NCBI GenBank assembly: GCA_025594325.1
Contig: JANHCV010000013.1
Span: forward strand, 434,001-498,000
Length of the DNA: 64,000 nucleotides
DNA from: Blastocladiella emersonii ATCC 22665
Lineage: Eukaryota > Fungi > Blastocladiomycota
Reading direction: 5' to 3'
Below the pieces are notes generated by a model. It did not search any database. It was not told where the DNA came from and saw only the letters and a program-made list of their open reading frames with translations. The translations under genes and the position numbers were made by a program. Numbering within the stretch: position 1 is the first letter of the stretch; each line of letters starts with the position of its first letter. Below, piece after piece: positions 15,613-33,740 of the stretch.

Positions 15613-16237
15613 TTTCAAAGACAAGAGGTCAGGGTACAGGGGGGGGGGAAGGTTGAGGACAAGGGAGCGTCTTAGCAGCATCAATGTATTGGGCAGGACA
15701 GGGGTCAGGGCAAGGGAGCGTCTTAGCAGGCAGCGTCTTAGCAGGCAGGAAGGCAGCGTGGCAGGTCGTGGAGTGTCTTAGAGCTCGTTGTTGTCCAGCT
15801 CGAGGACAAAGGTCAGGGACTGCTACGGGGTGGTCGTCCAGCTTGCCCAGTGAGCCGCGTGGCTGGTGAACTGACCAACCGCGTGGCTGGGGAATTAGCG
15901 CTATCCCTTGCCCTATAAGAACCCCCCACTGCCCCCCTCCCCAGACCTGCTCTCCACCACCCACAACAGAAGCCATGACACAGATTCACTGCCTCAAGCC
16001 CCTGCTGAGCGCGTATAGGCCATCTTGCTGCAATGAGCCCAACGCACTCACAGGACTTTTGGTATGGGTGTCATGGCCAACGTTGTGGGTGGTCAAAGTG
16101 TACGGCACAAGACGTACAGGGCTATCTGCTGTGCACGGCAATAGACTCGGTTGCTTGTGTCAGGACATGGAGCGCTGCGTGGACTTGCTACCCGTGCAGT
16201 TGCACCATGGACCTTTCTTCCTTTATCCTGTTGGCGC

Positions 16238-16592: not shown

Positions 16593-17264
16593 CTTGGCGA
16601 TGATGCCCTGCTCCACACTGGAACTTTGATTAGTGGTTGGCCACCATGAAAGGAGACTCCAGTGTGGGGCAGTCTGGGGGCTGCCTGGCCAGCAGCTCCT
16701 GGACGGGGGCGGAGCACCCATTGCTACGTTATGTCATTGCAGGGGCTGTGGTCACGTGACCAGTTGCCATGGACTGTTTGGTGGTGATGATGGAAGCGCG
16801 TTCAACGCACAAGTCTTTGACTTCTTCTCTGAACCTTCAGTAACCCATGCGCGGCTGCATCCTTGACATCACTCCCCTGCCTCAGCCGCCGTGCAACCAC
16901 TTGGAGCCACCTTGGTGGGTCTATGACAACTGGCTCCTGCTGGCCACGGTAGTTTACCCATGCTGTTGTCACACGTACACTGACTGCTATCATGGCTACA
17001 CCAGTGACAGCAACCAGTGAGAGTCTTCAAGGTAGCATTCACTGTTAACTTGAAGGGGCGCTTACTCAAAGCGCACAGCGTACACGACTTTGACACCGGG
17101 TGGACTTGCGTCTCAGATGGCCGTGTACTGGCTCAGGGACTTTGGCCCTGGTGTGGTTGGAGAAGGTGTACGGGGTGGTGACAAAGTGCAGCCAGTAGCC
17201 TGGTTCATGGTGTTGTCTCTTACTACGTTGTCGGGAAAATAAACACATTGCGCTGACGCGTTGC

Positions 17265-17375
17265 TTAGTCTACGGCGCGAATATCTTTGAGCGCGCTGGA
17301 GGTGTACCCAATGATGGCAAGGTTGGCCACAAGGCTGACCACGTTGGCTGCAAGGACAAGTGTCTCAAGGATCAT
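17265..17375 (-). CDS. Viral 36-aa hydrophobic micro-protein (not in the ORF track)
   Basis: MILETLVLAANVVSLVANLAIIGYTSSALKDIRAVD*. It directly follows the penton gene and is preceded by the conserved intergenic T-tract. Confidence 0.55.
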   Translation of the reverse strand: MILETLVLAANVVSLVANLAIIGYTSSALKDIRAVD

Positions 17376-17405
17376 TTTACATGTACACAGCAAAAAAGTC
17401 GCAGC

Positions 17406-18152
17406 TCAGATGAACGCGAGCTCGATGTAGAAGGGTTGCCCCAGGAAGTCAACAGAGCGCAGGTTCTCGTCCACCACGTCAACGTCAATGGAGTCTATCA
17501 GCTGCAGTGTGCCTCGCGCGTCAAAGCGAAAGTAGTCGCTCATGTGTGGCCCGTGCTCGAACCAGCTCCCAAACGGCTGTGTGACATGGATACTGCACAG
17601 CACACCATTATCCTGCGGGTACGCCGAGAACATGTTGTCTGCAAGGCGGCTGCCCAGGTTGCACGAGTACACATGCAGCAGGTTGATGGGAGAGATGTTC
17701 ACCAGAGACGTCCCGTACTGGACCTTGCTGTAGCTGTAGCTGCTGACAAAGCCCATGTGCGTGTTCAGCGCAGCGGCCCCTGTCCCAACAGTGAAGTTGC
17801 AGGTGTCATTGGCAATGCGCATCTTCTGTGTGGTGGAGTCAACCTGCACGTCCCATGTGCCCTGCCACAGAAGACTTGACGGCGCGTTGTTGAGCAGGCT
17901 CTTGAGCGTTGACATGAACGTCTCAACTGTGTAGTTGCCGTCAGGGACAGTGATGGTCCCTGGGAAGGTCACACTGCCACGGCTCTGTGTCAGGTACACC
18001 TTGTTGGCCTTGGAGTTGACTGTGTGCCAGCTGTTACAGAGGTACGCTGAGTTGACCTTGACGCCGCTCACAGACACAGCCCGCGGGAGGTACAGCACAC
18101 CGTTCTTGAGGTCGCGGCTGCAGATGGTCAGTGTCTTGTAGGAGCCAGTCAT
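17406..18152 (-). CDS. Minor capsid protein (penton, single jelly-roll), PLV type
   Basis: TLTICSRD…, NSWHTVN…ITVPDGNYT…LKSLLN, INLLHVYS and IDVDVVDENLRSVDFLGQPFYIEL follow the PLV/Polinton penton pattern; close to the MCP gene. Confidence 0.85.
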   Translation of the reverse strand: MTGSYKTLTICSRDLKNGVLYLPRAVSVSGVKVNSAYLCNSWHTVNSKANKVYLTQSRGSVTFPGTITVPDGNYTVETFMSTLKSLLNNAPSSLLWQGTWDVQVDSTTQKMRIANDTCNFTVGTGAAALNTHMGFVSSYSYSKVQYGTSLVNISPINLLHVYSCNLGSRLADNMFSAYPQDNGVLCSIHVTQPFGSWFEHGPHMSDYFRFDARGTLQLIDSIDVDVVDENLRSVDFLGQPFYIELAFI

Positions 18153-18173
18153 TTAAGTAAGGCTTAGAAGATA

Positions 18174-18440
18174 TTATTGCACTGCCGTGCCTGTGTCATT
18201 GTCGTCTGTCTCAAAGATCTCACTTGTTGGCCGGTTGTACCATGTGTGGATGTCCTGGGCCAGGTCAGTGCCCTTGGACACGAGCTGTGCCACAGACGAC
18301 ACGGCAGGGTTGTGTGAGCGCTCAAAGAACTTGGACACGGTCTTGACTCCCTTGAGCATGGTGGGGAGATGCTTGTTCACAAAGCCACCTACTTGGCCAA
18401 GCACGTTGCTGAAGTTGGTCCACAGGTTCCTGAAGATCAT
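18174..18440 (-). CDS. Viral 88-aa protein with predicted amphipathic N-terminal helix
   Basis: MIFRNLWTNFSNVLGQVGGFVNKHL…; fills the gap between MCP and penton; preceded by the conserved motif. Confidence 0.75.
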   Translation of the reverse strand: MIFRNLWTNFSNVLGQVGGFVNKHLPTMLKGVKTVSKFFERSHNPAVSSVAQLVSKGTDLAQDIHTWYNRPTSEIFETDDNDTGTAVQ

Positions 18441-18479
18441 TGCGTTTAACTGTACGCAAGAAAAGAATGCACGTGGGGC

Positions 18480-19700
18480 TTACTTGTAGAGGTTGACCTC
18501 GCCGGTTGGGAGAAACTCGTACACAATGTCAACACCAACAAAGGCGTCAACACGCTGGTTTGGGACAGTGCTTGAGGTGAGGATGATCTGCATGTCCACG
18601 GCCTGGCTCTTGCAAGACTTGTCGCCGCTGACAATGGTACGGGATGACTCGAGGTTGCGGCCAATGCAGAAGGTCCCCTCAGCTGGCGCATTGTACTTGT
18701 CCACTGACATGCCTGCACCAATGACATGGCCATGGAAGGCGTTGGACAGCTCTACAAAGGCCTCTGAAGCGTAGTTGTCACAGCGGACAGGCTTCTGGGG
18801 GAAGAGACAGCCACTTATGCTGAACTGGTACGTTGCAATGGTCTTGGCACGGAGGAACGAGTCCTTGGCATTGTCATTGAGCACTGCGTTGTCGCGGAAC
18901 GACACCAGCACGTCCTTTTGTGACGCACTGCGGTCAGAGACGTTGAGCGTAGAGTTGGGCACCGAGTAGTTGAGGAAGTGGTGGTTGTACGTTGTGCCGT
19001 AGAGCTTGAGACCCTGCTTCTTGAAGGCAGCGTCCATGACGGCGATCTGCTGGTCATTGAGCTTGATCAGGTCAGACACAATGCACACGTCCTTGACACT
19101 GTAGCTTGGGATGGCATTGTTCTTGACCACACAGGCATCTGCACCAGGAGCCAGGGTGAACTCGACGCAGATACCACCAAGGTACTTCATGGGCAGATGC
19201 TTCTGGTTGGACAGCAGTGCAGACTTGATGGGCAGCATGTACCGGTGAAGTCCAGATGACACAGCAAAGCGGTCAGCCCCAGTGGCAAAGTAACCCTGGG
19301 CCACGCCGAGGCATGAGTCCTTGAGGTGCTGCGGGACAGTCACGTCAGCCTCAATGCGCTGACGCAGGTTGTAGTAGGGAAGCTCTTCAAGCAGGGCTCC
19401 ACCCGCGCTGTAGACTCGCACACGGTCAATGATGCTGAAGATGCTATCACAGAAGGCGACGTTGGCGTCTGCAGTCTTGGCACTGAACTGCAGGAACGTG
19501 CAGTGGGTGTCCATCATGTCATTGCGCGGGGGCAGGAGGACACTGATAGTGTTGCCAGGTGCAAACTCAGGGCCGCCCTGTGCAGTGAACTGGACAGTCT
19601 GACGCTCGGCATACACAGACTCCTTGGGCAGGTTAAACGTCATCTCTGGCGGCAGAGTCTTTGACAGGACCTGGGAGAACTGGGCATTGGTGGAAGACAT
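18480..19700 (-). CDS. Major capsid protein (double jelly-roll), PLV type, about 406 aa
   Basis: EFAPGNTISVLLP…MDTHCTFLQF…SIIDRVRVYSAGGALLEELPYYN and C-terminal FCIGRNLE…SG…VDAFVGVDIVY. Likely start MSSTNAQF at 19700. Confidence 0.88.
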   Translation of the reverse strand: MSSTNAQFSQVLSKTLPPEMTFNLPKESVYAERQTVQFTAQGGPEFAPGNTISVLLPPRNDMMDTHCTFLQFSAKTADANVAFCDSIFSIIDRVRVYSAGGALLEELPYYNLRQRIEADVTVPQHLKDSCLGVAQGYFATGADRFAVSSGLHRYMLPIKSALLSNQKHLPMKYLGGICVEFTLAPGADACVVKNNAIPSYSVKDVCIVSDLIKLNDQQIAVMDAAFKKQGLKLYGTTYNHHFLNYSVPNSTLNVSDRSASQKDVLVSFRDNAVLNDNAKDSFLRAKTIATYQFSISGCLFPQKPVRCDNYASEAFVELSNAFHGHVIGAGMSVDKYNAPAEGTFCIGRNLESSRTIVSGDKSCKSQAVDMQIILTSSTVPNQRVDAFVGVDIVYEFLPTGEVNLYK

Positions 19701-19743
19701 GGCGTGTGTTACTGAAGCACAAGAAAAAAAGTCGCTGCGTCGC

Positions 19744-20544
19744 TTAGTCCTTGATGATCCACTCACTGAAGCTGTCTACCAGCCTGTACTTGGGACTGTT
19801 CTGGTTGTTGACACCAAGGAAGCGTTGCTTGGTGTTGCCCTCTGAGCGGGTGTCAAAGAGCTGCTCAATGATCACCTCAAACTCCTTGAGCGAGAACTGC
19901 GACCCGATCTCCTTGTGCAGTGTCTTGACCTCTGTCTTGTCATAGATGGGGTACACAACGCTGTAGCTGCAGTTGATGCGCAGTGTCTTGGGCAGAGCAC
20001 ACCAGCGCTGCACGCCAATGATGCAGCTGATCTTGAGGTGTCGCGAGTTGCACAGGAAGTTGGTCAGCGTCTTGTGGGACAGCAGCTTGAGGCCCAGCAC
20101 GTCGTCAATGATCAGCAGCTGGTCCTGCAGTGCCTTCTTTCCCTGGTCTTCAAAGGTCTTGGTCAGGTCTTTGCGCATCTTGAGCAGCGTGGGGATGAAC
20201 AGCTCTGGGTCCGTGACAATGCACAATGGCTTCACCTTGAGCTGGTTTGGGTTGTGCTCCTGTGGATCAAGTACATTGTGCTGCTTCTTGGGTGGTCGCA
20301 GGATCGCCTGTGAGGCAATGTACTCGTACTTGTCATCAGCGTGGAAGGTGGGGTTGAAGACCCAGATGTTGTCAAAGCGTCCCTTGTAGAACTGCGGGAA
20401 GCACACAAGGTTGGCAATCAGTGTTGACTTGCCCTGACCCTTGGCGCCAATGACGTTCATGGTGAAGGGGTGCTTGGGGATGGGCGAAGGCTGGTTGTTG
20501 TTGTTCCTGGTGAAGCCGTTGTCAATGGCCACAATGTTGTACAT
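19744..20544 (-). CDS. A32/FtsK-HerA-family DNA packaging ATPase
   Basis: Walker A VIGAKGQGKST, Walker B LLIIDD, RHLKIS…VQ…LPKTLRIN. Likely start MYNIVAID at 20544. Confidence 0.93.
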   Translation of the reverse strand: MYNIVAIDNGFTRNNNNQPSPIPKHPFTMNVIGAKGQGKSTLIANLVCFPQFYKGRFDNIWVFNPTFHADDKYEYIASQAILRPPKKQHNVLDPQEHNPNQLKVKPLCIVTDPELFIPTLLKMRKDLTKTFEDQGKKALQDQLLIIDDVLGLKLLSHKTLTNFLCNSRHLKISCIIGVQRWCALPKTLRINCSYSVVYPIYDKTEVKTLHKEIGSQFSLKEFEVIIEQLFDTRSEGNTKQRFLGVNNQNSPKYRLVDSFSEWIIKD

Positions 20545-20569
20545 CTTACTGTACCCCAAGACAAAAGGT

Positions 20570-22288
20570 TCACGCCCATCCAAGGTCAGTGACAATGCCA
20601 CTGCGCTTGGGGACTTCGCGCACTTGCTTGACTGGTCGCTCAGGGAGCTTCTGGTGACGCTTGATCTGGGGTGCTGTCAGGCCACTGCCAGCCGACGTCT
20701 TCTCTGTGAACAGCTTCGCGTCCAGGGGCTTCTTGTAGCCCAGTTGCTTGAGGATCTGTTCGAGTAACATCTCTGTCTTCTTACTACTACCCTCGGAATT
20801 GTTCTTGGGCGCGTCTGCAAGCTGTCGGATGAGCTGCTCCAGGTTGCTGGTGTCCAGGACCTGTGGCTGTGCTGGCGGCTGCATTGTGTCCAGCTTGCTG
20901 CCCAGGTCCTGGAGTGTCTTGTTCACAGCAGCATTGGACTCTGTCTGTCCCTGGATGGCGCTCTGGACACCTGTTGCAAGCTGGCCAATGAGTCCCTGCT
21001 GGTTGGTCAGGGCAGTTGACATGCCGCTTGCAATCTCAGACACCAGTGCACGGTTCCCTGCGTCAATCTGTCGCACAAAGGCGTTGCGCTCTGCACGCAG
21101 TGTGTCCACAATGTTAGCTGCAAGGTTGGCAAAGGTCTCAAGTGCCAGTCCTTGGGCGTTCTTGGACTGCTCAATCAGGGCCATGTACGCCTGGTACTGC
21201 ATGACCTGACTGTTCGCAAACTGGCCAGCAATGACGTCCAGCGCAGCCATCACGCTGGGGTCGCTGTTGTACTGCACCATGATCTGTGTACGCAGGTCAT
21301 TGTTCTGCTGGTAGCAGTTCTGCTCGTACTGTGTGATGTACTGCCGCATGTCGTAGTTCTGCGTGTTGTCCTGCTGGAAGCTGCTGTAGACGTATTGATT
21401 GAACTGCTGAAAGTTCTGGACAATGTCGACCTCCATGTTGTCTGTTGTGGTCAGTGCCTGCTCTGGGTTGTAGACCTGGATGTCCTTGGAGCCTTCAATC
21501 ATCCGAGACTTGTTCATGGTGGGATGTACGTGTGTGTCATTGTACACAGAGCCGCGCTGTGGAAAGTCCTGTCTGTAGCTGGGAGGGACAACAACCAGGT
21601 TGCATGTGCCATCGTCGAGCCGGGGTGGAAGGTCATTGCCGCCGTTGTTGTCATTCTGGATCAAGTAACATCCAGGGATCATGCCAGCGTACTCTGGGAT
21701 GTCCTGGCCAACGTAGTCACCAGCGTCCACAGGGTACTCTTCAGGGACAACTGGGCGGACAGGTACGGGCAAGAGATGGTCAGGCACACGCTGCCCTGCT
21801 GTCTCAAGCATCTCAGCAAGTTTGTCCAAGGTGTCCTGTGGCCTCTGTGAGCCTATGCCAGAGTCTTGTGTGCTTAGGACGTCTGGTGTGTCTGCGCCTG
21901 TGTCAGAGTCTGGCGTGCCTTCCTGTGCAACAGGAACACGTTGGATGCCACTGCTAACGCTTGTGCTTGCTTGCTTGATGGTGTCATAGACGTGCTGCAT
22001 GACGCTCTCTGAGTCTTGCCCCATGATCTCTCCATTGTGTCTCAGGAACAGCATCCCTGATTGCTTGCCCTCAAAGTCGTCTGCATAGCTCTCTGGTGTG
22101 ACAGCGTAGTCAAAGGCAAGGATGTACGGGACCCACACAGTGAGGAACTCCTTGGCTGTGGGGAAAGTGTACGCGCGTTCATCAATGGTGGCCTTGATCC
22201 TCTGGCCAGGCATGCGCTCTGCAGTGATATGACTGTTTGTCTTGGCTGCAACGTCTTCCAGTTGCTTGGTGATGGGTCTTCGTGTCAT
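20570..22288 (-). CDS. Viral hypothetical protein (about 572 aa), Gln/Asn-rich with coiled-coil C-terminal half
   Basis: Long ORF; likely start MTRRPITKQ at 22288 after the conserved motif. No family recognised. Confidence 0.8.
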   Translation of the reverse strand: MTRRPITKQLEDVAAKTNSHITAERMPGQRIKATIDERAYTFPTAKEFLTVWVPYILAFDYAVTPESYADDFEGKQSGMLFLRHNGEIMGQDSESVMQHVYDTIKQASTSVSSGIQRVPVAQEGTPDSDTGADTPDVLSTQDSGIGSQRPQDTLDKLAEMLETAGQRVPDHLLPVPVRPVVPEEYPVDAGDYVGQDIPEYAGMIPGCYLIQNDNNGGNDLPPRLDDGTCNLVVVPPSYRQDFPQRGSVYNDTHVHPTMNKSRMIEGSKDIQVYNPEQALTTTDNMEVDIVQNFQQFNQYVYSSFQQDNTQNYDMRQYITQYEQNCYQQNNDLRTQIMVQYNSDPSVMAALDVIAGQFANSQVMQYQAYMALIEQSKNAQGLALETFANLAANIVDTLRAERNAFVRQIDAGNRALVSEIASGMSTALTNQQGLIGQLATGVQSAIQGQTESNAAVNKTLQDLGSKLDTMQPPAQPQVLDTSNLEQLIRQLADAPKNNSEGSSKKTEMLLEQILKQLGYKKPLDAKLFTEKTSAGSGLTAPQIKRHQKLPERPVKQVREVPKRSGIVTDLGWA

Positions 22289-22326
22289 GGTGGTTACTGT
22301 ATGAAGCGAAAATAAACCCTGGGCAA

Positions 22327-22469
22327 GGTACACTTTGCACCTGTCTGTGGTACACTTTGCACCGTCAAGGGTACACTTTGCACCTGTCTGTGGTACACTT
22401 TGTACCGTCAAGGGTACACTTTGCACCTGTCTGTGGTACACTTTGTACCGTCAAGGGTACACTTTGTAC
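22327..22469. repeat. 7 copies of GGTACACTTTGYAC with alternating 22/21-bp spacing (43-bp higher-order unit)
   Basis: Copies at 22327, 22349, 22370, 22392, 22413, 22435 and 22456; linkers alternate CTGTCTGT and CGTCAAG. Confidence 0.93.
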
Positions 22470-22680
22470 GTTGTGCATTGCGCTTGGCGTTGAGTGCCTT
22501 GTAGATGCGGATCTTGACGCGCTCTGCCCGTGCTGCCTCACTGTCAACGTGGACAAAGCGACTGGCCTTGCAGTCCCTCTTCTGTAGCCACTTGGCCTTG
22601 TCCTTGTCGCTCTTGTTGTACCAGTTGGATGGCACAGGGAACGTCCCTGCAAGGTGTTCACGCCACTCATCAAGGGACAT
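22408..22680 (-). CDS. Small basic viral hypothetical protein (about 90 aa)
   Basis: MSLDEWREHL…KAKWLQKR…RIYKALNAKR; the C-terminus runs into the repeat array; start codon uncertain. Confidence 0.45.
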   Translation of the reverse strand: MSLDEWREHLAGTFPVPSNWYNKSDKDKAKWLQKRDCKASRFVHVDSEAARAERVKIRIYKALNAKRNAQRTKCTLDGTKCTTDRCKVYP

Positions 22681-22723
22681 GTCCTGGTACTCTGAGCAAT
22701 TCATTTCTTGCACTAAGTTAAAC

Positions 22724-24580
22724 ATGGTCAAGAATATATTCAACGTGTCTACCAACGTGTCACCAACAGTGTCGGCCACAGGTGTCTCAGACGTGTCCAA
22801 GGCATATGTTGATGCTGCCATCAGTGCTGTCTATGCCACAGTTGGTGCACCTGTCGCTGGGCCTGGACTCAGCGTGTCAGGGACAACTGTCTCTGCCAAG
22901 GTCAATGACCAGACACTGGGTGTTGGTCCAAGCGGTCTCTATGTCAAGTCAATCAGTACGGCCCAGCTCCTGCCAGCCAGCGTCACAGCAGACAAGCTTG
23001 TGAGTGTCACAGCTGCACAGGTCACAGGTAAGCTTGTTGATGCACAGCTGGACACTGTGTCAGCATCCAAGGTCACTGGTGTGCTCAGTGCGTCCAGCCT
23101 TCCTGTGCTTGGGACAGCGTCCATTGCAGATGGCTCTGTGACAGACGCCAAGGTTGCCTCAGTGTCTGGGTCCAAGCTGGTTCCAGGAAGTGTCTCAACA
23201 CCTGCTCTTGCAGACGCCTCAGTGACAGACGCCAAGGTTGCGTCTGTGTCCGGGTCCAAGCTGGTTCCAGGGACTGTCAGCACAGCAGCACTTGCAGACA
23301 CCGCAATAACAGATGTCAAGGTTGCCTCAGTGTCTGGGTCCAAGCTGGTTCCAGGGACTGTCAGCACAGCTGCCCTTGCAGACGCTGCTGTCACCAACGC
23401 CAAGCTGGCCACTGGTATAGACGGTGCAAAGCTCAACGTGTCATCTGTGGGAACAGCACACCTTGCAGCAGGGTCAGTCACCAATGCCAAGGTCACAGAT
23501 GTGTCTGCCACCAGGCTGACAGGGACGCTTGATCCTGCACGCATTGCAGACAGTTCACTGACCAATGCCAAGCTGGCCACTGGGATAGACGCTGCCAAGT
23601 TGTCTGGGACCATTGACCTTGCACGACTGCCTGACGTGTCCAGCAAGGTGTCAAGTGTCAACGGAGCCATTGTCACTGGGACGCTCCCCCAGTCCACCCT
23701 TGGACTTGGCAGTGTCTTTACCTTTGCCAGTACTGTGGACAGCACATCAACGTCCACTGGGGCAGTCACTGTGGCAGGTGGCCTTGGTGTGGGCAAGCAG
23801 CTCACTGTGCCAAACGTCCTTGTCCGGAACACAGTCAGTGCAAATGTGGTCTTTGACTCTGCTGCCAACACACTCACATACATTGACTTCAAGCAAGCAG
23901 GTGTCCTGAAGAGCAACCTGGCATGCACTGCACTGGGCACCATTGAGATTGCTTCAGCAACCAATGGTGGTGTGTCCTTGGCTGCAGGTGGCGGCAACGT
24001 GGTTGTGGGCTCGGCGACGCTTGGCACAGAAAAGCTCCGTGTCAATGGCACTGGTCGCTTCACAGGGCAGCTCACCCTTGACCTCGCTCCAGTGGCAGGC
24101 ACTGACGCAGCAAACAAGGCGTACGTTGACTCGCGGTCTGGCATGACCCGGTACGTCGCTCAGGCTGAGCACCGCTCTACAAACGGAGTGACCACAGGTG
24201 GCAAGATCATTGGCAGCACAGCATCGACGGGCCCGGCCACCTTTGCGTTCCAGTCCACGGCAGGCGCGTTCACGTCTGTGATCAATGGATGTGTCAAACC
24301 CCCTGTCAGTGGCTACTACCTCGTCCATGCAAAGGGCTATTACGCAAACGGCACGCTCCCTGGAGCCCACACTGTGAACTTTGCGCTGTACAATATGACG
24401 GACATGATTGCAGTGTCACTTGTCACCGGGTGCCGCGCTGAAGGCAACGTCCAGTTCCTTCAGTTCTTGAGCATTGAGTACCTTGACGCGGCCAAGAGCT
24501 ACTCTTTCATCTGGATCCCGTCGGTCGCAGTTGCCAACAACTGCCAGGTCATCATTCAAAGCCACTGGACCCTGCTCTAA
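22724..24580 (+). CDS. Fibre/spike-like virion protein (about 618 aa) with phage-tail-fibre-type repeats and a putative C1q/TNF-like head
   Basis: 28-aa repeats ADASVTDAKVASVSGSKLVPG.VST.AL (84-bp DNA period), VTNAKLATGID.AKL, DAANKAYVD and C-terminal PVSGYYLV. Start MVKNIFNV at 22724. Confidence 0.75.
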   Translation: MVKNIFNVSTNVSPTVSATGVSDVSKAYVDAAISAVYATVGAPVAGPGLSVSGTTVSAKVNDQTLGVGPSGLYVKSISTAQLLPASVTADKLVSVTAAQVTGKLVDAQLDTVSASKVTGVLSASSLPVLGTASIADGSVTDAKVASVSGSKLVPGSVSTPALADASVTDAKVASVSGSKLVPGTVSTAALADTAITDVKVASVSGSKLVPGTVSTAALADAAVTNAKLATGIDGAKLNVSSVGTAHLAAGSVTNAKVTDVSATRLTGTLDPARIADSSLTNAKLATGIDAAKLSGTIDLARLPDVSSKVSSVNGAIVTGTLPQSTLGLGSVFTFASTVDSTSTSTGAVTVAGGLGVGKQLTVPNVLVRNTVSANVVFDSAANTLTYIDFKQAGVLKSNLACTALGTIEIASATNGGVSLAAGGGNVVVGSATLGTEKLRVNGTGRFTGQLTLDLAPVAGTDAANKAYVDSRSGMTRYVAQAEHRSTNGVTTGGKIIGSTASTGPATFAFQSTAGAFTSVINGCVKPPVSGYYLVHAKGYYANGTLPGAHTVNFALYNMTDMIAVSLVTGCRAEGNVQFLQFLSIEYLDAAKSYSFIWIPSVAVANNCQVIIQSHWTLL

Positions 24581-25689
24581 AGCCCGCGGTCCCACTTTTC
24601 TTGGACTCGGACTGGGACGCGCCTGACCTGGGTCGAGGGCTCCCTTGGCATGACCGGGGTGCGCGCAGCAGGGAGCCTTGGGAGACTTGGACCTACGCGC
24701 TGCCTTGTTGGCGGGTCCTGGGTCGCTGTGACTGGCTGGACGTCGCTGCGTGGATAGAAGCCCTTCAAGTCACCAACCTTGTACAATGGGTTGCTCACAC
24801 TAGAGCCCTTGCGGACAGCTGTGACTTGGTGCACTGTGGACGTCCATACTGGCTTTCCCTTTGCTTCCATGGCTGTCTTGTACGGCTCACGGACACGTAC
24901 CTGTGTTCCAACTTTGAGCAGCGCACTGAGTGGGTCACCCTCTGGCTTGCCCTTGGCAGCACGGATGGCCTTGAGTGTGTCCTTGGCAGCGTCTTGCGGC
25001 ATGTCATGGAAGTCATTGGGCGCCTTGCCTGTAGCTCTGGACTTGCTGCTGTTGATCACGGACTCTATGGTCTCAAGGTGCTTTGGCCAGTTGTTGTTGC
25101 CTTCAATGGACAGCCACGGTGTCAGCATCCTGCAAATGGTCCCGTTCATACGCTCAACTACTCCCTGACTGTATGGCACACCTGCCTTGCCTTTGATGTG
25201 CTTTGCGCCTGTCCCCGCTTCAATGCCATTGAACTCTGTGCCATTGTCTGTCTGGATGGTTGCTGGTGTCAGGTTGTGCTTGGAGACAACGTCGTCCCAT
25301 GCCTGCCGTGTCAGGTCCTTGGTCTTGACTGGACGCAGGAACACGCGTCGAGTTGCCAAGTCTACACAGGTAAGAATGTACCTGAACCCGTTGAAGGTAC
25401 CTTTCTTGCCCATGTCTATGAGGTCCAGCTGCCAGTTGCAGCCAGGACTGGTGGACACAATGCTTTGGATGTTGCGCCGCTTCTGTGGTGCACACTTGTA
25501 CTGCTGCCACACAGACTGCTCATTGAGCCACCTCTCCAGCTGTGCGCGGTACACGTGGTCACCAGTGTTCTCTCTGGACACAATGTCAAAGAGCCAACAG
25601 ATACCAACACCAACATTGCCGCGCTTGTAGTACAAGTCTGTCAGGAACGCTTGCTGTGCGTCTGTGAGTGGTGCTTTGTGTGGATACAT
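24577..25689 (-). CDS. Retroviral-like (rve, DDE) integrase of Polinton type
   Basis: WQLDLIDM…LTCVDLATR, IQTDNGTEF and PYSQGVVERMN give a D-D-E triad. Polinton-type C-terminus VGTQVRV…KGKPVWT…YKV.D.KGFYPRSDVQPV. Its stop overlaps the fibre stop (CTAA). Confidence 0.93.
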   Translation of the reverse strand: MYPHKAPLTDAQQAFLTDLYYKRGNVGVGICWLFDIVSRENTGDHVYRAQLERWLNEQSVWQQYKCAPQKRRNIQSIVSTSPGCNWQLDLIDMGKKGTFNGFRYILTCVDLATRRVFLRPVKTKDLTRQAWDDVVSKHNLTPATIQTDNGTEFNGIEAGTGAKHIKGKAGVPYSQGVVERMNGTICRMLTPWLSIEGNNNWPKHLETIESVINSSKSRATGKAPNDFHDMPQDAAKDTLKAIRAAKGKPEGDPLSALLKVGTQVRVREPYKTAMEAKGKPVWTSTVHQVTAVRKGSSVSNPLYKVGDLKGFYPRSDVQPVTATQDPPTRQRVGPSLPRLPAARTPVMPREPSTQVRRVPVRVQEKWDRGL

Positions 25690-25712
25690 TACATTACGGC
25701 AACAAAACAAGG

Positions 25713-26654
25713 TCAGACAAGGTAGTGGGCCACGGCGACAGGTACGCTGTGACCCATCTCAGCAGCACGCTTGGCCACGGCCTCATACGCGTCCTTGTTC
25801 TCACTGGTGCTGATGCGGCGGATCTGCTGGACACCGCACCCCTTGAAGCCAACGTCCTGTGCTGCCAGCGCAATGGTCTTGGACCAGTCTTTGCGGACCT
25901 TGGCGTTGACCTGAGCATCACAGACGTTGTCCAGGCTGTGGTTGTAGAAGACCAGGTCATGGCCATCAGCAAGACGCTTGGCAATGATGCGCTCAAGGGC
26001 TGCAGCAACCTTGGGGTCAGCAATGACATGCGAGAACCCGTAGCCACGGCCATCTGTCTTGACGCACACAGGGCCGGCCAGCGTCTTGGTCTCGGGGTTG
26101 TAGCTTGGGTACTTGTCACTGGGCTTGGTGGTCAGGAACGCAAGGTCACTGCGGGTTGCACAGACGACTTGGAGGTACAGACGCAGAGCACGCATTGTGC
26201 CAGACACCTGGTATGTGTCCCAGTTCTCAGCAGCAACAACAGCAGCCAGCAAGTCTTCACGGCTTGGGAGTGCACCAGTCTCCACAGCCTTGCGCGCGTC
26301 AAGGTGAGCTTCAGCGTCCTGCTTCTTGGCCTGCGTGTACTGTGCAGCAAGGTTGTTGTTGCCATTCCACTTGCAGTACTTGGCCAGCGCCTTGAGCGTC
26401 TCAACCTGCAGACCCTGTGCCTTGTCTGTGCCCTTGGTTGCACGGTACGTCTCCACAGCCTTTGTCATACTGTTGACGTCCTCAATGGCCAGCCCCGACT
26501 TGCAGAACGCAGTCAGCACGCAACACAGCTTGGACTGGTCATCGGCACTGAGCTGGGACACTTGGCCGTACTTGTTCACCACAGGCTCACTGGCACACGC
26601 CTTGATGGATTCCTCGGTCATCTGCGCGTACTTGACCTGGGGATCAGTGTCCAT
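25713..26654 (-). CDS. Tyrosine recombinase-like protein (about 313 aa)
   Basis: Putative catalytic set: R (ATRSDL), K (CVKTDG), QQIRR at the HxxR position, and terminal MGHS…AHY. The ORF stays open upstream to a GTG at 26714. Confidence 0.72.
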   Translation of the reverse strand: MDTDPQVKYAQMTEESIKACASEPVVNKYGQVSQLSADDQSKLCCVLTAFCKSGLAIEDVNSMTKAVETYRATKGTDKAQGLQVETLKALAKYCKWNGNNNLAAQYTQAKKQDAEAHLDARKAVETGALPSREDLLAAVVAAENWDTYQVSGTMRALRLYLQVVCATRSDLAFLTTKPSDKYPSYNPETKTLAGPVCVKTDGRGYGFSHVIADPKVAAALERIIAKRLADGHDLVFYNHSLDNVCDAQVNAKVRKDWSKTIALAAQDVGFKGCGVQQIRRISTSENKDAYEAVAKRAAEMGHSVPVAVAHYLV

Positions 26655-26984
26655 GGGCTCGCCAGACTCGTTGGCGGGGGTGTCATCGGAACTGTGATTG
26701 CAGTCACGTGACACTGCAGCCAGCGCGGCGAGGCTGGTCTCGATTTGCCGTCACACAGCCTTTGGCTGGCACCGGCGCAGGGCTTTGCCCTCTCGCCCTT
26801 GCCCAGACTTGCGCCGCGCACGCTCTCGCACTCCCTGACCAAATCGTGCAACTCGCCCGCCTCCCAGCATGCATGCGGACGCTTGCCGACCCTGCGCTCC
26901 GGGCACGGTGATGTTCAGGTTGCGCATGATGGCGAGGTCGATGAAAAATTTTTTTTTAAGGCGGCCAGCGTCGCTTCGTCGAGT

Positions 26985-27850
26985 TGATTATCAGCGCCGC
27001 TTTGTTGGGTTGAAGTTCAACGTCGCCTTGTTGTGTTGATGACCAGCGTCGATTGATGACCAGCGTCGACTTGTCGGGTCAATGATCAGCGCCGCCTTGT
27101 TGGGTTGACAATGAGCATCGCCTTGTTGCGTTGATGTCCAGCGTTGCCTTGTTCAGTTGGAGTTCAGCGTCGTCTTGTTGCGTTGAAGTTCAGCGTCGCC
27201 TTGTTGCATCAAAGCTCAGCGTCACCTCGTTGCGTTGACGACCAGCGTTGTTGCATTGACAACCAGCGTCACCTCGTTGCATTGTGATCAGCGTCGCCTT
27301 GTTGGGTCGTGATCAACGTCGCCTTGTTGCATTAATGATCAGCGTCAGCTCGTTGTGTCAATGACTAGCGTCGCCTTGTTGCGTTGATGGCGAGCGTCGC
27401 CTTGTTGCGTCAATGACCAGCGTCGCCTTGTTGCGTTGATGACCAGCGTCGCCTTGTTGCGTCAATGACCAGCGTCACCTTGTTGCGTCGATGACCAGCG
27501 TCACCTCGTTGTGTCAATGACAAGCGCTGCTTTGGTGAGTTGTTGGTCAGCGTCGCCTCGTTGAGTTCAAGTCCAACGCGTCTTTGTTGAGTTCGTGATC
27601 AGCAGCGCCTCGTTGCGTCAATGACCAGCGTCGCCTCATTGCGTTGCGTTGATGATCAGCGTTGCCTTATTGGGTTGACAATCAGCGCTGCGTTGTGTCT
27701 ACGACCAGCGTCACCTTGTTGAGTTTGTAATCAGCGTCGCCTTGTTGAGTTCGTAATCAGCGTCGCCTTGTTGCGTTCATGATCAGCGTTGCCTCGTTGC
27801 TTTCATGATCAGCGTTGCCTCGTTGCATTGATTGCCAGCGTCGCCTCGTT
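26985..27850. repeat. About 33 degenerate copies of a 26-bp tandem repeat, consensus CAGCGTCGCCTTGTTGCGTTGATGAC
   Basis: Period 26 is clear at 27421/27447/27473; no ORF of 60 aa or more lies in 26988-28053. Confidence 0.92.
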
Positions 27851-28476
27851 CCATTGCTGAGCGACGCCGCGCCACGCAACACTGATTGAAGAAGAGATGA
27901 TGATCGAGTGCTGCGCTTGAGAGTCGACAAACAAACGAGTTGAGTTAGCTCAGACTACGCTGAATTCGTCATAGCAAAACTATTGCGTTCCTGTCAAGAT
28001 TCTGCCCCAACATATGGTTGCTCATCTCTATTGCGACACGATCAAGGCAAGGATCAGGGGCTGCGACTCAACTCAGCCGCGCTGCTGCTGCTGTTGCCGC
28101 ATAACATGCTGCGCAGAGCGACAGTGACAAGGTAACACGTAAGGTGAACCGCCAACTTGGCGCGGATGCGGCTAAAGTCGCACAGCAACCAAGAAACGTC
28201 ATTGACACATGAAGAAGCAACAACAGAGTACATATTTGTTGCGGGTTGACTTTGATTCAGCGAGGGCGCGCGAGGGAGAAAGGGCGAGGGGACGCGTTCA
28301 GCCACTCACGTGACATGATGAGGCAAGCCCAAATGTGACAATCAACGCCAGACCCGGTGGCGGAGCAGGTGGTGGAGGCACGGTTGCAGATGCGGTAGGC
28401 GGAGGTGCAGGACCAGAAGGCGAAAGCGACCTGGGTGCGACTGTTGAGGACAAGGTGTTTGAAGTAAGTGCAGCGC

Positions 28477-28842
28477 TTACGTGCGCGTTGAACGGCGGCA
28501 CGCGTGTTGAAAGTTCAGCGCGGTCGTTGGATCGTTGTTGATGAGGGCGAGGCGGAGAGCTGAGAGAGAGGACGGGTCGCGCAGATCTGCGGCGGACAGC
28601 GACAGCGACGTGAGCAGTCCATGGTATGCATCAATCAGCTCATGGAGCTTCTTGCCGACAGGTTCAGGGGCGCGTGTATGAGCAGAATGCTGAGCGAGCC
28701 ATGCGGCAGCGTGTCAAGCGGCAGCAGCGCGGTGGCCGTGCGACGCGAAGGTGGCGTAGTTGCTCGAGTCGGGGCAAAGCCAGTCGACAAGGCGGTCACA
28801 CTCCTCCGCGGTCCACCTTGGCCGACTCTCGTGTTGCGGCAT
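28477..28842 (-). pseudogene. Myb/SANT-like DNA-binding protein with one in-frame stop
   Basis: MPQHESRPRWTAEECDRLVDWL…NY…AAAA*HAAAWL…R.PEPVGKKLHELIDAY; TGA at 28714-28716, and the same frame continues to TAA at 28477. Confidence 0.55.
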
Positions 28843-28933
28843 GTTACAGCCGCTCAAGTTTTCGTTTCGTGGAGGAGAAGTGGAGTGCGCAACGTCGCCT
28901 GAGCCAAAGTCGCGAGCAAGCCGCAAAACGCGT

Positions 28934-29182
28934 TCAGCCACAGTCACGTGACATGTATGACGTGATGAAACCAAGTGAAATCCGCCAAAAGCACGTGACA
29001 CAGACCGAGACTTTCGAAGGGGCCACCCAATATTTCAGGGCAAAGCCCTGCACTCCCTTGAACCGCTCATCAAAGGACGCCAGCAGCGGCTTGATACCAT
29101 CGAGCACTTGGTGCACTACGTTGGCGGTAACGTGCTGAGCAACAACCTTGGGCACCTGGGACACGAGCGCTTCGAGAGACAT
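28934..29182 (-). CDS. Small viral hypothetical protein (82 aa)
   Basis: MSLEALVSQVPKVV…; preceded by CTTCTTTTCTGGGGCTACGGTAAGATG, closely similar to the ATPase upstream motif. Confidence 0.55.
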   Translation of the reverse strand: MSLEALVSQVPKVVAQHVTANVVHQVLDGIKPLLASFDERFKGVQGFALKYWVAPSKVSVCVTCFWRISLGFITSYMSRDCG

Positions 29183-29271
29183 CTTACCGTAGCCCCAGAA
29201 AAGAAGGCGTCACTGACTCAAGTGCGTTTGGCGGTATCGTTAAATATATTGTGCGTCAATGGTAGGACACC

Positions 29272-29766
29272 ATGTACTACGACAGCGACAGCGACAGCCA
29301 TGTCCCCAACCCCCTTGATGAGTTCCTGCTTAGCATTGCTTACTGCAGAGGCAAGGTGGTTGACTTTGACAAGGTGAAGGCCTTGACCATGGACGCTGCA
29401 CGCAAGGCATGGCTGGGCAATGACAAGTCTCTGGCAGAGGCCATGAAGACGCTGCGTGTTGTTATTGCCCGTCTTGCAGTGTTGCAGCACGTCCAAGGGG
29501 CGCCTGTGAAGACACAGCAGCTGTACGACAGCACGTCAATGAAGCGGCTCCTGCCAGACATCCCCTTGAAGAAGGGTGCTCCCTCAATTGACTTTGACCA
29601 GCTTGCACAGGACTTTCCTCTGGACACGTCCGAGTGGGATGCCATCAAGGTAGAGTACCAAGACTGGCTCAAGAAGCAGTCTTCCAAGCGACTTGCCCGG
29701 CTGTGTGTGCGCCCAGAGCGGAAGCCCAAGAAGAAGGCTGAGAGCGACTCTGACCTGAGCAAGTGA
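29272..29766 (+). CDS. Viral hypothetical protein (164 aa) with basic NLS-like C-terminus
   Basis: Clean ORF with viral codon use; RPERKPKKK. Confidence 0.7.
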   Translation: MYYDSDSDSHVPNPLDEFLLSIAYCRGKVVDFDKVKALTMDAARKAWLGNDKSLAEAMKTLRVVIARLAVLQHVQGAPVKTQQLYDSTSMKRLLPDIPLKKGAPSIDFDQLAQDFPLDTSEWDAIKVEYQDWLKKQSSKRLARLCVRPERKPKKKAESDSDLSK

Positions 29767-29772
29767 ACACAC

Positions 29773-29920
29773 CAGGACGGGACAAGGACACAATGCACAG
29801 GACGGGACAAGGACACAATGCACAGGACGGGACAAGGACACAATGCACAGGACGGGACAAGGACACGATGCACAGGGCAGGCCAACCAGGACGGGACAAC
29901 GACACAGTGCACAGGACAGG
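29773..29920. repeat. 25-bp tandem repeat (CAGGACGGGACAAGGACACAATGCA), 4 copies plus a degenerate copy
   Basis: Copies at 29773, 29798, 29823 and 29848. Confidence 0.92.
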
Positions 29921-30021
29921 CCATGCCAACAAGGGCTCCCGGGGCACAGTCATTAACGCTAAATCCTGCGCGTTTAAACGCACCTGTCCTGTCACCCTTT
30001 CTGTTACCTCATCATAACAAC

Positions 30022-33000
30022 ATGGTCTGCAATCAGGTTCCCAGTAAACATGGCACCGCCTTTGGTCTCAAGTGGTTCCATGGCAAGGATGGTGGCGACA
30101 GCGACATGGGCCCTCAGCGCACGCTCTTGTCCGAGCTGCAAGACAACGAGACAGTCATCAAGCGCCTCGTTGACAAGGGCGTCGACAACCACAGCCAACC
30201 CAAGGCGGCGCACTACTTTGCCAAGGTCAAGACAGCTGACCTGGCCGGGCTCCTTGACAAGAACTGCTGCATCCAGGAGATGGTCCACCCCAATCGCCTG
30301 TCCAAGGTCTACTTTGACATTGACTGCCCAGGCAACCGCAAGGACGTGACCCTGGACGTCATCAAGAAGGTCATCCTGACCCAGGTCCCCAGCGCCAACC
30401 TCCAGGTCTGCAGCTACGAGACGGACCTCAAAAAGTCATGGCACATTGTCCTCAGCAACTACACGGCCACGCTCAAGGACATGCCGTTCCTGAAGCTGTT
30501 CTGCAGCCACCCCGACCATGTCAAGCTTGGCTTTGACTCCAGCGTGTACAGCAAGCACCGCTTCATGAAGTGCATCAACCAGTCCAAGCCCAAGAAGACG
30601 CCCAGCGTGTGGATCTCGGGTAACAAGGACCGCCTGTCCAAGCACTTGATCCAGTGCGACTTTGACCCCAACTGCGCGTCGGTCTTGGACCTGTCCTTTG
30701 AAGAGGTTGTGACTGCCAAGGCCAAGGAAGCGCGGACCAAGCGCCACGTGGGTCGCCTTGACTACGACCTTGACATCCCCGAGTTCAAGGACGTGCAGAT
30801 CGACCCCGACTTCTTGTACTACGACGCCACGCCACTCGAGATCCTCCACAACATCCCCATCAGCCCCGAGAACGCGTTCCACAACAACGTGACCTGGCGG
30901 ATCATGACATGGGCCATGCGCAAAGGGGTCACATTTGACCAGTTCTGGGCGTGGACGTCGCAGCAGGACAACTCGGCTCAGCGCATGCAAAAGTACTGGG
31001 GCCGATGGAACGAGATTGCCAGCAACGACAACTACCAGGTGCTGGACACGTTTGTCAAGGCCATCTTCTACAAGTGGTTCCCAGCCGCGTTCAAGTCCAA
31101 GGCCATGGCCAAGTTTGAGCAGTCGCTTGAGGTACCGGTGGACGTGACCAGCCCCAACCAGTTCCTGTCCTGCAACAACATTACCCTGGCCAAGTTCAAC
31201 GTGCTGGCCACGGGCATGGGCTCCAACAAGATGGGCGCTGTTTGCGACTACATTGCCAAGTACCCAGACGCGCAAGTGGTCTGGATCACACCTCGCATCA
31301 CCCTGGCCCACAACACCGAGGGTCGAGCCTGCGAACAGAAGCTTGGCTTTGTCAACTACTGCAGCATCAAGGACAAGAAGACACTGGGGGATCACAAGCG
31401 ACTCATTGTCTCGCCGTGCTCGCTGCACTACTTGACCAAGCCCTACAACATTGTTGTGGTGGACAAGTCTGAGACGGTCCTCAAGATGTTCCAGGACGCC
31501 AAGTTGCACACAACCACCATTCGCAACAACCTCGAGGCCAACCTCAAGGCCTTCAAGACGCTGTGCGAGCACAAGGGCAGCAATGGTATCTTCATGGACG
31601 CGTTTGTCACAAACCTGACCATGGACGTCCTCCGCTCCTTTACTGTCGAGCACAACATCAAGACCATACTCCATGGTAAGATCAAGGTGATCACAAACAC
31701 GCTCGGCAAGAATTTTGAGCCGCACAAGATGAGCCTCATCACCGACGACAAGGACAACGAGAAGTCCGCCGAAGACATCATGGAGAGCAACATCATTGCC
31801 GACCTCAAGGCCAACAAGAAGCTCTACCTCTTCCTCCCACGACCATGCAAGACGTCAACCAAGTGGTCGGTGCAGACCTTTGGCGAGTACCTCGAGCGGG
31901 TCTTTGCCAAGGAGACGTGGAAGATTGGCAAGCAGATCAAGCTCTACCACGGCGACCGCCCCAACCACGAGGACAAGGAACTCATTGACCCTGACTCTGT
32001 GTGGGGCGACAATACGGTCCGTATAGTCATCGCCAACCTCAAGATCACTGTGGGGGTCAACTTTTTGAAGCCATACGTCTTCCACAAGGTGTACGCGCGC
32101 TACAAGTCCTGGGTCCCTGCCCGCGACTTCTTCCAGGCAATCTACCGCGTGCGCTACCCCATTGACAACGAGATCGTGTTCATGATCAGCCATGGTTGCC
32201 GCGGCGCGTACATGAACAAGTTACAGGTCATTGACTTGGACTCGGTCGGCAAACTTCACCGGGCTATTGTCAAGAACACGGATCTCGAGAACGAGATGGC
32301 CGCTGTGACCTTCTGCCTCAAGGTCTTTGACGCCTTCCGCAAGGTCATCAACATTGTCATGGACAACTCCCCCAAGTACTACTACAAGGCGCACCCCGAG
32401 ATTAAGGATGTCATGACGTTGGGCTGGTCTTTTGAATGGGCAAACGTCCAGCTACCGTCCAAGGAGATCATGCGCGCCTACTGCAAAGGTACCATCAAGG
32501 ACCCGGACTGGACCATCTCCCTCTCCGTCCGCAAGGCCTTCTTCATCCGCAAGTTCAATGGTCTGAGCATGGACAACATGAAGATCATCTGGGACGACAA
32601 CGCGGAGAGCTTCATGGAGCGTATCCAGCACTTTTACACCAAGGACAAGGGCCACGTCCTGCAAAAGCTCCTGGAACACAACGACATGGACCTCCGCACG
32701 TCCAAGGAGTTCAACATCCAGGCCACCATCCCCGCCAAGTTTGAAGCAGACATCCACAAGTACTTCAAGAAGCTTGGGTATTACAAGTGTGACACAGCAA
32801 CAGTCCTAAACAGGCTTCTCAGCACTTACTTTAACAAGTGCCTTGCTGTGCCAGACAAGGACGAACCCCGGGTCTCAGTACGCGGCAAGAAGTACAGTAA
32901 CCTGAAGTGGACAGACAACATTCTGTACTTTGTCATGTACGAGACCTGGACCCCACCCCCGGCCAATCTGGCCCCGTTTGTCCTGGAGATGGACGAGGAC

Positions 33001-33033
33001 GAGGACAACAACGAGGACAACAACGAGCTCTAA
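30022..33033 (+). CDS. AEP primase(-polymerase) fused to a herpes UL9/origin-binding-protein-like SF2 helicase (about 1003 aa)
   Basis: AEP motifs YFDID, SWHIV and DSSVYSKHRFMKCINQSK. Helicase motifs TGMGSNKM, VVWITPRITL, VVVDKSE, FMDAF, LYHGD, ITVGVNF and FQAIYRVR. Likely start MVCNQ at 30022; the last codons lie inside the right TIR. Confidence 0.85.
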   Translation: MVCNQVPSKHGTAFGLKWFHGKDGGDSDMGPQRTLLSELQDNETVIKRLVDKGVDNHSQPKAAHYFAKVKTADLAGLLDKNCCIQEMVHPNRLSKVYFDIDCPGNRKDVTLDVIKKVILTQVPSANLQVCSYETDLKKSWHIVLSNYTATLKDMPFLKLFCSHPDHVKLGFDSSVYSKHRFMKCINQSKPKKTPSVWISGNKDRLSKHLIQCDFDPNCASVLDLSFEEVVTAKAKEARTKRHVGRLDYDLDIPEFKDVQIDPDFLYYDATPLEILHNIPISPENAFHNNVTWRIMTWAMRKGVTFDQFWAWTSQQDNSAQRMQKYWGRWNEIASNDNYQVLDTFVKAIFYKWFPAAFKSKAMAKFEQSLEVPVDVTSPNQFLSCNNITLAKFNVLATGMGSNKMGAVCDYIAKYPDAQVVWITPRITLAHNTEGRACEQKLGFVNYCSIKDKKTLGDHKRLIVSPCSLHYLTKPYNIVVVDKSETVLKMFQDAKLHTTTIRNNLEANLKAFKTLCEHKGSNGIFMDAFVTNLTMDVLRSFTVEHNIKTILHGKIKVITNTLGKNFEPHKMSLITDDKDNEKSAEDIMESNIIADLKANKKLYLFLPRPCKTSTKWSVQTFGEYLERVFAKETWKIGKQIKLYHGDRPNHEDKELIDPDSVWGDNTVRIVIANLKITVGVNFLKPYVFHKVYARYKSWVPARDFFQAIYRVRYPIDNEIVFMISHGCRGAYMNKLQVIDLDSVGKLHRAIVKNTDLENEMAAVTFCLKVFDAFRKVINIVMDNSPKYYYKAHPEIKDVMTLGWSFEWANVQLPSKEIMRAYCKGTIKDPDWTISLSVRKAFFIRKFNGLSMDNMKIIWDDNAESFMERIQHFYTKDKGHVLQKLLEHNDMDLRTSKEFNIQATIPAKFEADIHKYFKKLGYYKCDTATVLNRLLSTYFNKCLAVPDKDEPRVSVRGKKYSNLKWTDNILYFVMYETWTPPPANLAPFVLEMDEDEDNNEDNNEL

Positions 33034-33740
33034 GACACTCCACGACCTGCCACGCTGCCTTCCTGCCTGCTAAGACGCTGCCTGCTAAGACGCTCCCTTG
33101 CCCTGACCCCTGTCCTGCCCAATACATTGATGCTGCTAAGACGCTCCCTTGTCCTCAACCTTCCCCCCCCCCTGTACCCTGACCTCTTGTCTTTGAAAGT
33201 TCCACTTTCATGGCAAAAAAGGGTAGTGTATATATATACTCTGTCGTAATATGCCATGAAAGTGGAACCTTTACGGTGAGTGGCTTCATAGCAGCCGCTT
33301 GCGGCAGGTGGTCGGGGATGGGCTTGGGGGTCAGGTCAGGGACCAGACCATGGAACTCTGTCAGTGGGTAGCCGCAGCTGCGCTGCTCTTCGTCTCGCTG
33401 CGCTTGCCAGCTGCCGCCGACCGCTCGGGGTAAGCAATGGTCAGCCCGAGCGGTTGGTCAGGGACGGGCTCAGGGATCTGCTCTTGGACTTGTCTCACAG
33501 ATTGACTCGCAGCCGTGCCCATGCGCCATTCATCTGCACGTGATCCACGTGACCCACCCGCCACCCGCCCCCGTGCCGTATCCCTGGGGCATTTGGCAAA
33601 TCTCAATATATTACTCGGGGTAACGCATTGCCGATCACGTGGTTAGCCCGAGTGACTGCCGCCGACCGCTCGGGGTAAGCAATTGGTCAGCCTGGGTGGT
33701 GGTGGGTCAGCCCATGCCGTATCCCTTAAGGGATACGGCA
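33015..33740 (-). repeat. Right terminal inverted repeat (726 bp), with terminal palindrome at 33715-33740
   Basis: Reverse complement of 15071-15796 with 3 mismatches. Confidence 0.97.

Follow-up and report, generated by a model that had tools for sequence, protein, structure and literature searches.

An integrated polinton-like virus in the genome of the fungus Blastocladiella emersonii ATCC 22665 carries a short two-part motif before every supported gene start, and the host part of the analysed DNA lacks this motif. The element occupies 18.7 kb, positions 15071-33740 of a stretch of 64,000 nucleotides (nt) that we call the window (GenBank assembly GCA_025594325.1, contig JANHCV010000013.1, positions 434,001 to 498,000). 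Judging from the sequence, the motif likely serves as a promoter and not as a splice site, and it likely works like the late promoter of a giant virus yet belongs to no published one. We lean slightly towards the reading that it is a late-type promoter used by the transcription machinery of a helper giant virus. The element itself is likely one copy of a multicopy polinton-like virus family in B. emersonii, because its capsid protein is 81-96% identical to hypothetical proteins of this species in seven clusters, one of which has 26 members including models of neighbouring genes. An earlier note on this DNA had quoted ten motif strings, all correct in position and strand. The sites are as follows (aa, amino acids; ORF, open reading frame; N10, 10 nt).

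16820..16843, plus strand: TCT-N10-TAA with CAG before TAA, before the 57-aa ORF at 16847; overlooked in the earlier note
17220..17243, minus strand: weak motif, CCC replacing TCT, before the 31-aa ORF 17113-17208
17377..17400, minus strand: motif with a TGC core and no AG, before the 36-aa ORF 17265-17375
18153..18176, minus strand: TCT-N10-TAAATG with no AG before TAA, before the putative minor capsid gene (start 18152); overlooked earlier
18446..18469, minus strand: TCT-N10-TAA with AG one base earlier, before the 88-aa ORF 18174-18440
19709..19732, minus strand: best-scoring motif site, before the major capsid gene 18480-19700
20546..20569, minus strand: motif before the A32-like ATPase gene 19744-20544
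22294..22317, minus strand: motif with a TCG core, before the 572-aa ORF 20570-22288
22698..22721, plus strand: motif, plus half of a bidirectional site, before the fibre-like gene 22724-24580
22718..22741, minus strand: mirror motif with no AG before TAA, 13 nt before the ORF98 ATG at 22704; overlooked earlier
25689..25712, minus strand: TGT-N10-TAATG with no AG, before the rve integrase gene 24577-25689
29184..29207, minus strand: TCT-N10-TAA with CGG before TAA, before 29182, the likely start of the recombinase-like gene
29242..29265, plus strand: variant W8-TGT-N10-TAG, 6 nt before ORF164 (29272-29766); overlooked earlier
29994..30017, plus strand: weaker TGT-N10-TAA with no AG, before the putative primase-helicase gene 30022-33033

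The earlier claim that the motif precedes most viral start codons was borne out by a tally of 16 element ATG starts, kept in one list; this and all other motif statistics come from one element copy at the DNA level. TAA lies within 15 nt upstream of 13 of these starts, compared with 35 of the 571 other element ATGs (Fisher's exact test: p = 6.6e-13). The three starts without TAA are 29272, which has the TAG variant, 26654, likely an internal ATG, and 15975, an unsupported ORF behind a TATA-like box. A rule fitted afterwards requires a T-rich 10-mer 16-22 nt before TAA and an ATG no more than 12 nt away; it is satisfied by 13 of 587 element ATGs and by none of 1056 host-side ATG triplets, where every ATG was counted and not starts alone. 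By this rule the motif is not equally common before host ATGs, a comparison raised in the earlier note. With a matrix trained on the seven longest genes, using hand-picked anchors, five held-out gene starts ranked 5th, 7th, 10th, 12th and 14th of 37,338 element positions, and leave-one-out ranks were 2-71. The top ten element sites scored 15.5-28.3, and the best of 90,498 host positions scored 11.0. The bare number of TCT-N10-TAA occurrences over the whole window is no more than chance (8 versus a mean of 5.8; 22 of 100 shuffles reach 8). However, all eight lie inside the element, each with an ATG no more than 13 nt downstream; simulations of the element gave a mean of 0.5 such sites, and none of 300 attained 8. 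The significance of the motif lies in its placement before ATGs.

With TAA as the anchor of the alignment, the sequence from -19 to -11 is mostly T T x T T T T C T. The motif is a two-part element of about eight T-rich bases, TCT, exactly 10 nt and TAA, with the ATG within 13 nt. Of the 13 sites, 8 have TCT and 10 have T[CG]T at -13..-11 from TAA, and any other gap has at most three TCT. After shuffling of letters within sites, at most 2 of 20,000 trials reached eight (p <= 1e-4; maximum over positions and trimers). Among the 121 TAAs of the element, TCT is found eight times at gap 10 and zero to three times at the other gaps from 5 to 15, and none of 225 host TAAs has TCT at gap 10. The earlier note had described a pyrimidine tract followed by an optional AG and TAA. 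A T-rich tract and TAA were indeed found, while AG is the weakest part: it occurs in 7 of 13 sites, directly before TAA in five and one base earlier in two, and the upstream information of these seven sites is 18.3 bits when anchored on TAA versus 15.8 bits when anchored on AG. The reading frame from TAA to ATG is inconstant among sites. A search made without reference to ATGs gave an eighth exact site at 22720(-), the mirror of the fibre site 22719(+), with a common TTAA core. These overlapping copies on opposite strands (22698-22741) serve a divergent gene pair, and the second gene of the pair, ORF98, is real on the evidence of sequence comparison, because sister-copy proteins 73% identical to it start at the same place. 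A second mirror arrangement of TGT-N10-TAA, 30006(-) and 30015(+), lies before the putative primase-helicase gene; the minus strand after 30006(-) has no convincing ORF.

The late promoter of mimivirus, shared with Sputnik and Guarani, is given as [AT](8)T[AC]TN(4)[AT](5)[AG]TA[TG]A (PMC6510173). This pattern was brought into the comparison after the TCT-TAA spacing had been noticed. Like the motif, it is two-part, with a T[AC]T core after an 8-nt block of weak bases and 10 nt from the core to TA. The likeness extends to the purine before TA, found at 9 of 13 motif sites, and to the position before most genes of a small helper-type virus. T[AC]T-10 nt-TA is matched exactly at 8 of 13 sites, with agreement at 32 of 39 core letters and 79 of 104 block letters. 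When the mimivirus spacer was varied from N0 to N9 over the 13 sites, N4 was best, with 82 mismatches versus 99-119 for the others. A scan of the element with the mimivirus pattern placed five of its seven best matches outside the terminal repeats at gene starts in the exact register, and the best of all (four mismatches) was the TAG variant before ORF164, which is outside the TAA rule. However, mimivirus and Sputnik have TA[TG]A where TAA is found here, the upstream block of the motif is T/C-rich and its spacer GC-rich, and the element, unlike Sputnik, is a polinton-like virus of 56% GC integrated in a fungus. The likeness is a resemblance, not membership.

Helper late promoters are carried by Sputnik, Guarani, mavirus and type-4 EMALEs (PMC6510173, PMC8547959, PMC6723459). 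In mavirus and type-4 EMALEs this is TCTA, the late promoter of Cafeteria roenbergensis virus (CroV) (PMC8547959, PMC6723459), flanked by AT-rich sequence. There too, a TCT-containing core precedes every gene of an integrated element that has rve and terminal inverted repeats. The difference is that TCTA occurs at 1 of 13 sites here, and that the motif needs TAA as a second fixed part. The vaccinia late promoter consists of a T-containing core, a 5-7 bp spacer and TAAAT, and the p72 promoter of African swine fever virus has TATTT at -15..-11 and TATATA at the start (review PMC5294985). Both share with the motif a T-rich core and a TAA-type initiator right before the ATG. TAAAT, however, is found at 1 of 13 sites, and the spacer here is 10 nt with a defined TCT.

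Because the motif spacing matches the mimivirus late promoter, a giant virus would likely switch the element on. Factors would bind the T-rich/TCT core, and initiation would take place one helical turn downstream, in or near TAA, leaving very short 5' leaders. The CAG or TAG before TAA would then be an initiator context and not an intron end. Each gene would start separately despite the short gaps between genes (21-56 nt at seven junctions and 119 nt at the eighth), and transcripts would run on to shared ends, possibly at a hairpin of the terminal repeats. The element would be silent in the nucleus until a giant virus supplies late factors. The obvious candidates would be Mycodnaviridae, which infect Blastocladiomycota, are related to Imitervirales and encode the late factor VLTF3 (PMC13533422). 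In favour of this reading, the minus-strand gene block has no AATAAA on its sense strand, while this hexamer follows some host ORFs. The hairpins of the terminal repeats (15540-15615 and 33196-33271) each consist of a TATATATATA loop closed by a perfect stem of about 20 bp (RNA fold z -6.0), and they lie downstream of both outward-pointing gene blocks. They recall the hairpin polyadenylation signal of mimivirus and Sputnik (PMC6723459), although the loop is long here, and are candidate 3'-end signals; they may serve replication instead, as origins.

Several observations weigh against a giant-virus late promoter. The mimivirus pattern shows 4-9 mismatches per site where PMC6510173 allows one, so the sites are not members of that class; the [TG] that follows TA in this pattern is absent from all 13 TAA sites, and parts of the terminal repeats rich in AT reach the same score (four mismatches). 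One helical turn is a generic spacing, and the agreement with mimivirus could be coincidence. Replication and integration genes also carry the motif, so it is not plainly late. Chance falls far short of accounting for the YAG or AAG that 7 of 13 sites have before TAA, for which the promoter reading offers no more than a role as context, and at the mirror site 22718..22741(-) a TAG lies between TAA and ATG, a possible acceptor. The main text of PMC13533422 names neither an RNA polymerase nor B. emersonii, and the DNA-level analysis rests on a single element copy. The identity of the promoter reader is the least certain part of the mechanism.

The earlier note had read the motif as 3' splice acceptors, in an adenovirus-like scheme or by trans-splicing, and this interpretation is not supported. 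It would have one long transcript per strand, or a trans-spliced leader, joined at the AG before each ATG, which we consider quite improbable. In its favour, 7 of 13 sites have YAG or AAG adjacent to TAA or one base further upstream. A T-rich tract lies upstream, and several sites have an A 15-22 nt ahead of the AG, about as far as in candidate host introns; gaps of 21-56 nt are too short for 3' ends, and sense-strand AATAAA is missing from the minus-strand block. However, six of 13 sites have no AG there, including those of the integrase, minor capsid and putative primase-helicase genes, and AG occurs in two registers while TCT and TAA stay fixed. Host introns defined by expressed sequence tags have GTACG-type donors, mostly TAG acceptors (about two thirds) and CT[GAC]A[CT] branch sites in 87 of 105 (PMC2773782; this count and the TAG share were taken by hand from the table in supplement 1). 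The motif sites depart from host splice sites on both counts, as AG is present at 7 of 13 rather than at every acceptor, and a branch point of the host type in one of the seven AG sites, against a chance level of 15%. CAG is preferred at the motif sites (5 of 7) over the host's TAG, and the next base is T in all seven, while host exons begin with various bases. In the window, candidate host introns (five loci chosen by eye from 16 overlapping candidates, the branch point being no criterion) have CT[GAC]AC 21-43 nt before AG and no T-run beside it. There is no shared leader, nor a standout donor among many GT sites, and the mirror-symmetric overlap of opposite-strand copies is natural for DNA-binding factors, not for RNA signals. 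The frequent AG, the short gaps and the missing AATAAA fit separate starts with shared 3' ends equally well. If true, splicing would be much the stranger finding, yet the sequence speaks against it. Some sister-copy models join adjacent ORFs by means of predicted introns (P0004, P0024, P0025, P0183); they were rejected as evidence for splicing, being annotation models only; where traced, they use internal junctions and not the motif AG. We also rejected AG followed by TAA as the stop of a leader-encoded peptide, as frames vary, and a scheme in which TAA is the branch point and the AG lies beyond the ATG, since no YAG is found at a constant distance and homologues keep the same capsid start.

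The same DNA could also be a promoter for RNA polymerase II of the host, which would use it either unaided or together with an activator encoded by the element, and with no helper. The T-rich block would be the virus's form of the pyrimidine-rich core promoter of fungi, and CAGT or TCAGT an initiator. Fixed spacing and bidirectionality support either kind of promoter, likely host starts in the window show C-rich pyrimidine tracts and an AC-rich context before the ATG, and CAGT is present at 5 of 13 motif sites. CAGT resembles the initiators of insects and of baculovirus early genes. We nevertheless regard this explanation as rather unlikely, given that no host ATG passes the rule (0 of 1056) and no host TAA has TCT at gap 10 (0 of 225), that rigid spacing with leaders of 0-13 nt is typical of giant-virus late promoters instead, and that the published giant-virus pattern picks the same register. 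As an alternative to splicing, the earlier note had named a late promoter or terminator read by a helper giant virus. Its promoter half is the better supported. A terminator or other 3'-end signal belonging to the gene upstream, with a backup stop codon and a favourable context for translation after it, would agree with the T-rich block after the upstream stop at eight sites (gaps of 21-119 nt) and with a TTTTCTT half-site without TAA right after the stop of the fibre gene. Such a function is nonetheless very improbable, as the full motif stands at divergent starts without an upstream gene end (22704, 22724, 29182, 29272 and 16847), five of six inspected gene ends lack even a half-site, and TAA keeps no constant frame to the ATG. 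GTCACGTGAC boxes were counted and dropped; CACGTG occurs 14 times in the element and 12 times in the host, and most boxes are in repeats or in the insert described below.

The element has TG...CA ends and a 5-bp target-site duplication, AGCTG, and its two 726-bp terminal inverted repeats match perfectly. Its parts are as follows.

15071..15796, plus strand: left terminal inverted repeat, 726 bp, beginning with a perfect 26-bp palindrome; hairpin inside at 15540-15615
16847-17020, plus strand: predicted 57-aa ORF
17113-17208, minus strand: predicted 31-aa ORF
17265-17375, minus strand: predicted 36-aa hydrophobic ORF
17406-18152, minus strand: putative minor capsid gene, so labelled from its size and position
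18174-18440, minus strand: 88-aa ORF, its start common to sister-copy gene models
18480-19700, minus strand: major capsid gene, 406 aa; predicted double jelly roll (pLDDT 89), match to the PBCV-1 capsid (E 3e-18)
19744-20544, minus strand: A32-like packaging ATPase gene (Pox_A32, E 9e-13)
20570-22288, minus strand: 572-aa ORF
22408-22704, minus strand: ORF98, 98 aa, with sister-copy proteins 73% identical and starting at the same position
22724-24580, plus strand: fibre-like gene
24577-25689, minus strand: rve integrase gene (rve, E 2e-7, just under the curated cut-off)
25713-26654, minus strand: body of the tyrosine-recombinase-like gene, 313 aa, weak fold matches (E 3e-3)
29272-29766, plus strand: ORF164, 164 aa
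30022-33033, plus strand: putative primase-helicase gene, 1003 aa, labelled by eye, no Pfam match
33015..33740, minus strand: right terminal inverted repeat; hairpin inside at 33196-33271

The size, terminal inverted repeats and target-site duplication are within the range that defines polinton-like viruses (15-30 kb, both features present). By its predicted fold, the 406-aa protein is a double-jelly-roll major capsid protein as expected of this group, and an A32-like ATPase occurs together with an integration enzyme (rve; the recombinase-like fold is weak). No element ORF was recognised as an RNA polymerase. The leading, weak fold matches of the 313-aa protein are only tyrosine recombinases and, at rank 2, the protelomerase TelA. 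Both ends of the element (15071-15096 and 33715-33740) are a perfect 26-bp palindrome. These ends and the TelA match suggest that a free form of the element may end in hairpins produced by a telomere resolvase, integration being the task of rve.

Recombinases of sister copies are 55-65% identical. The opening segment of the sister-copy recombinase models shares 57% identity with the first 42 residues encoded from 29182. Because this segment matches 29182, where the motif stands, the sequence comparison suggests that 29182 is likely the true start of the recombinase-like gene and that ATG 26654 is internal. The first 42 codons are parted from the body (26711-25713) by an insert of about 2.3 kb (26777-29051). 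Its CpG content is host-like, with an observed/expected ratio (o/e) of about 1.0-1.4 compared with about 0.6 in the adjoining DNA; it also has tandem repeats of 26 bp and inverted ends of 15 bp. It is likely a nested mobile element, or else a long intron; no clean target duplication was found at the insert. The CpG o/e of the element is 0.68 (0.57-0.76), with an excess of TpG/CpA, and that of the flanking host DNA is 1.27, which suggests long exposure to cytosine methylation or selection against CpG. Short tandem-repeat arrays are present at 16203-16613 (36-bp units), 22327-22469 (21-22 bp) and 29773-29936 (25 bp). The array at 22327-22469 makes up the end of ORF98, a region that differs among sister copies. 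On the host side, the region adjoining the insertion (8700-14900) contains duplicated ORFs of lower GC (pairs 8773/12874, 9544/14216 and 9929/14652, with 71-75% identity); two of its long ORFs were tested and had no Pfam match.

Integrated polinton-like viruses are known from the zoosporic fungi Spizellomyces punctatus and Allomyces macrogynus (PMC7805220). As described there, those elements resemble the present one in having a capsid, an ATPase, a helicase, rve or a tyrosine recombinase, terminal repeats and a 5-7 bp target duplication. Unlike that description, this element combines an rve integrase with a recombinase-like gene and likely belongs to a multicopy family in B. emersonii. The main text of PMC7805220 never uses the word 'promoter', and a large protist survey left out fungi (PMC10120064). 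Scans of viral contigs with the capsid, a capsid alignment, a distant capsid, the ATPase, a recombinase alignment and the putative primase-helicase found no relative, and metagenome scans found no close relative and at most two very distant loci. A distant AT-rich polinton-like contig (L002, 1-9332) has, by eye, ATPase and capsid-like genes and a protein-primed polymerase. It carries a different motif, TTTCATTTTT, in eight occurrences, five of them with an ATG within 60 nt and three of these five without an AG in between. This motif is an analogy, not conservation. Helper-matched promoters in virophages and polinton-like viruses are already known, as are integrated polinton-like viruses of fungi. 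A literature search that covered few subscription papers found no report of this element family in Blastocladiella, nor of a promoter motif in a fungal polinton-like virus.

It is conceivable, though we hold it with some doubt, that the provirophage-like elements of Blastocladiella, a multicopy family, are wired to the late promoter of a fungal giant virus of the Mycodnaviridae, and that the TCT-10 nt-TA geometry has been conserved since mimivirus. If true, this would be a host-giant virus-virophage system in the fungal kingdom and in a cultured model organism, and the helper could be found by a motif search. Among sequence clues to the giant virus that activates an integrated virophage or polinton-like virus, a promoter matched to that of the helper is the best. 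It is only recently that giant viruses infecting zoosporic fungi were described, and the main text of PMC13533422 contains neither 'promoter' nor 'virophage'. A precise motif from a multicopy element in a model fungus would therefore be a direct search key for the helper, and it would test whether the mimivirus late-promoter geometry is ancestral to a wider group.

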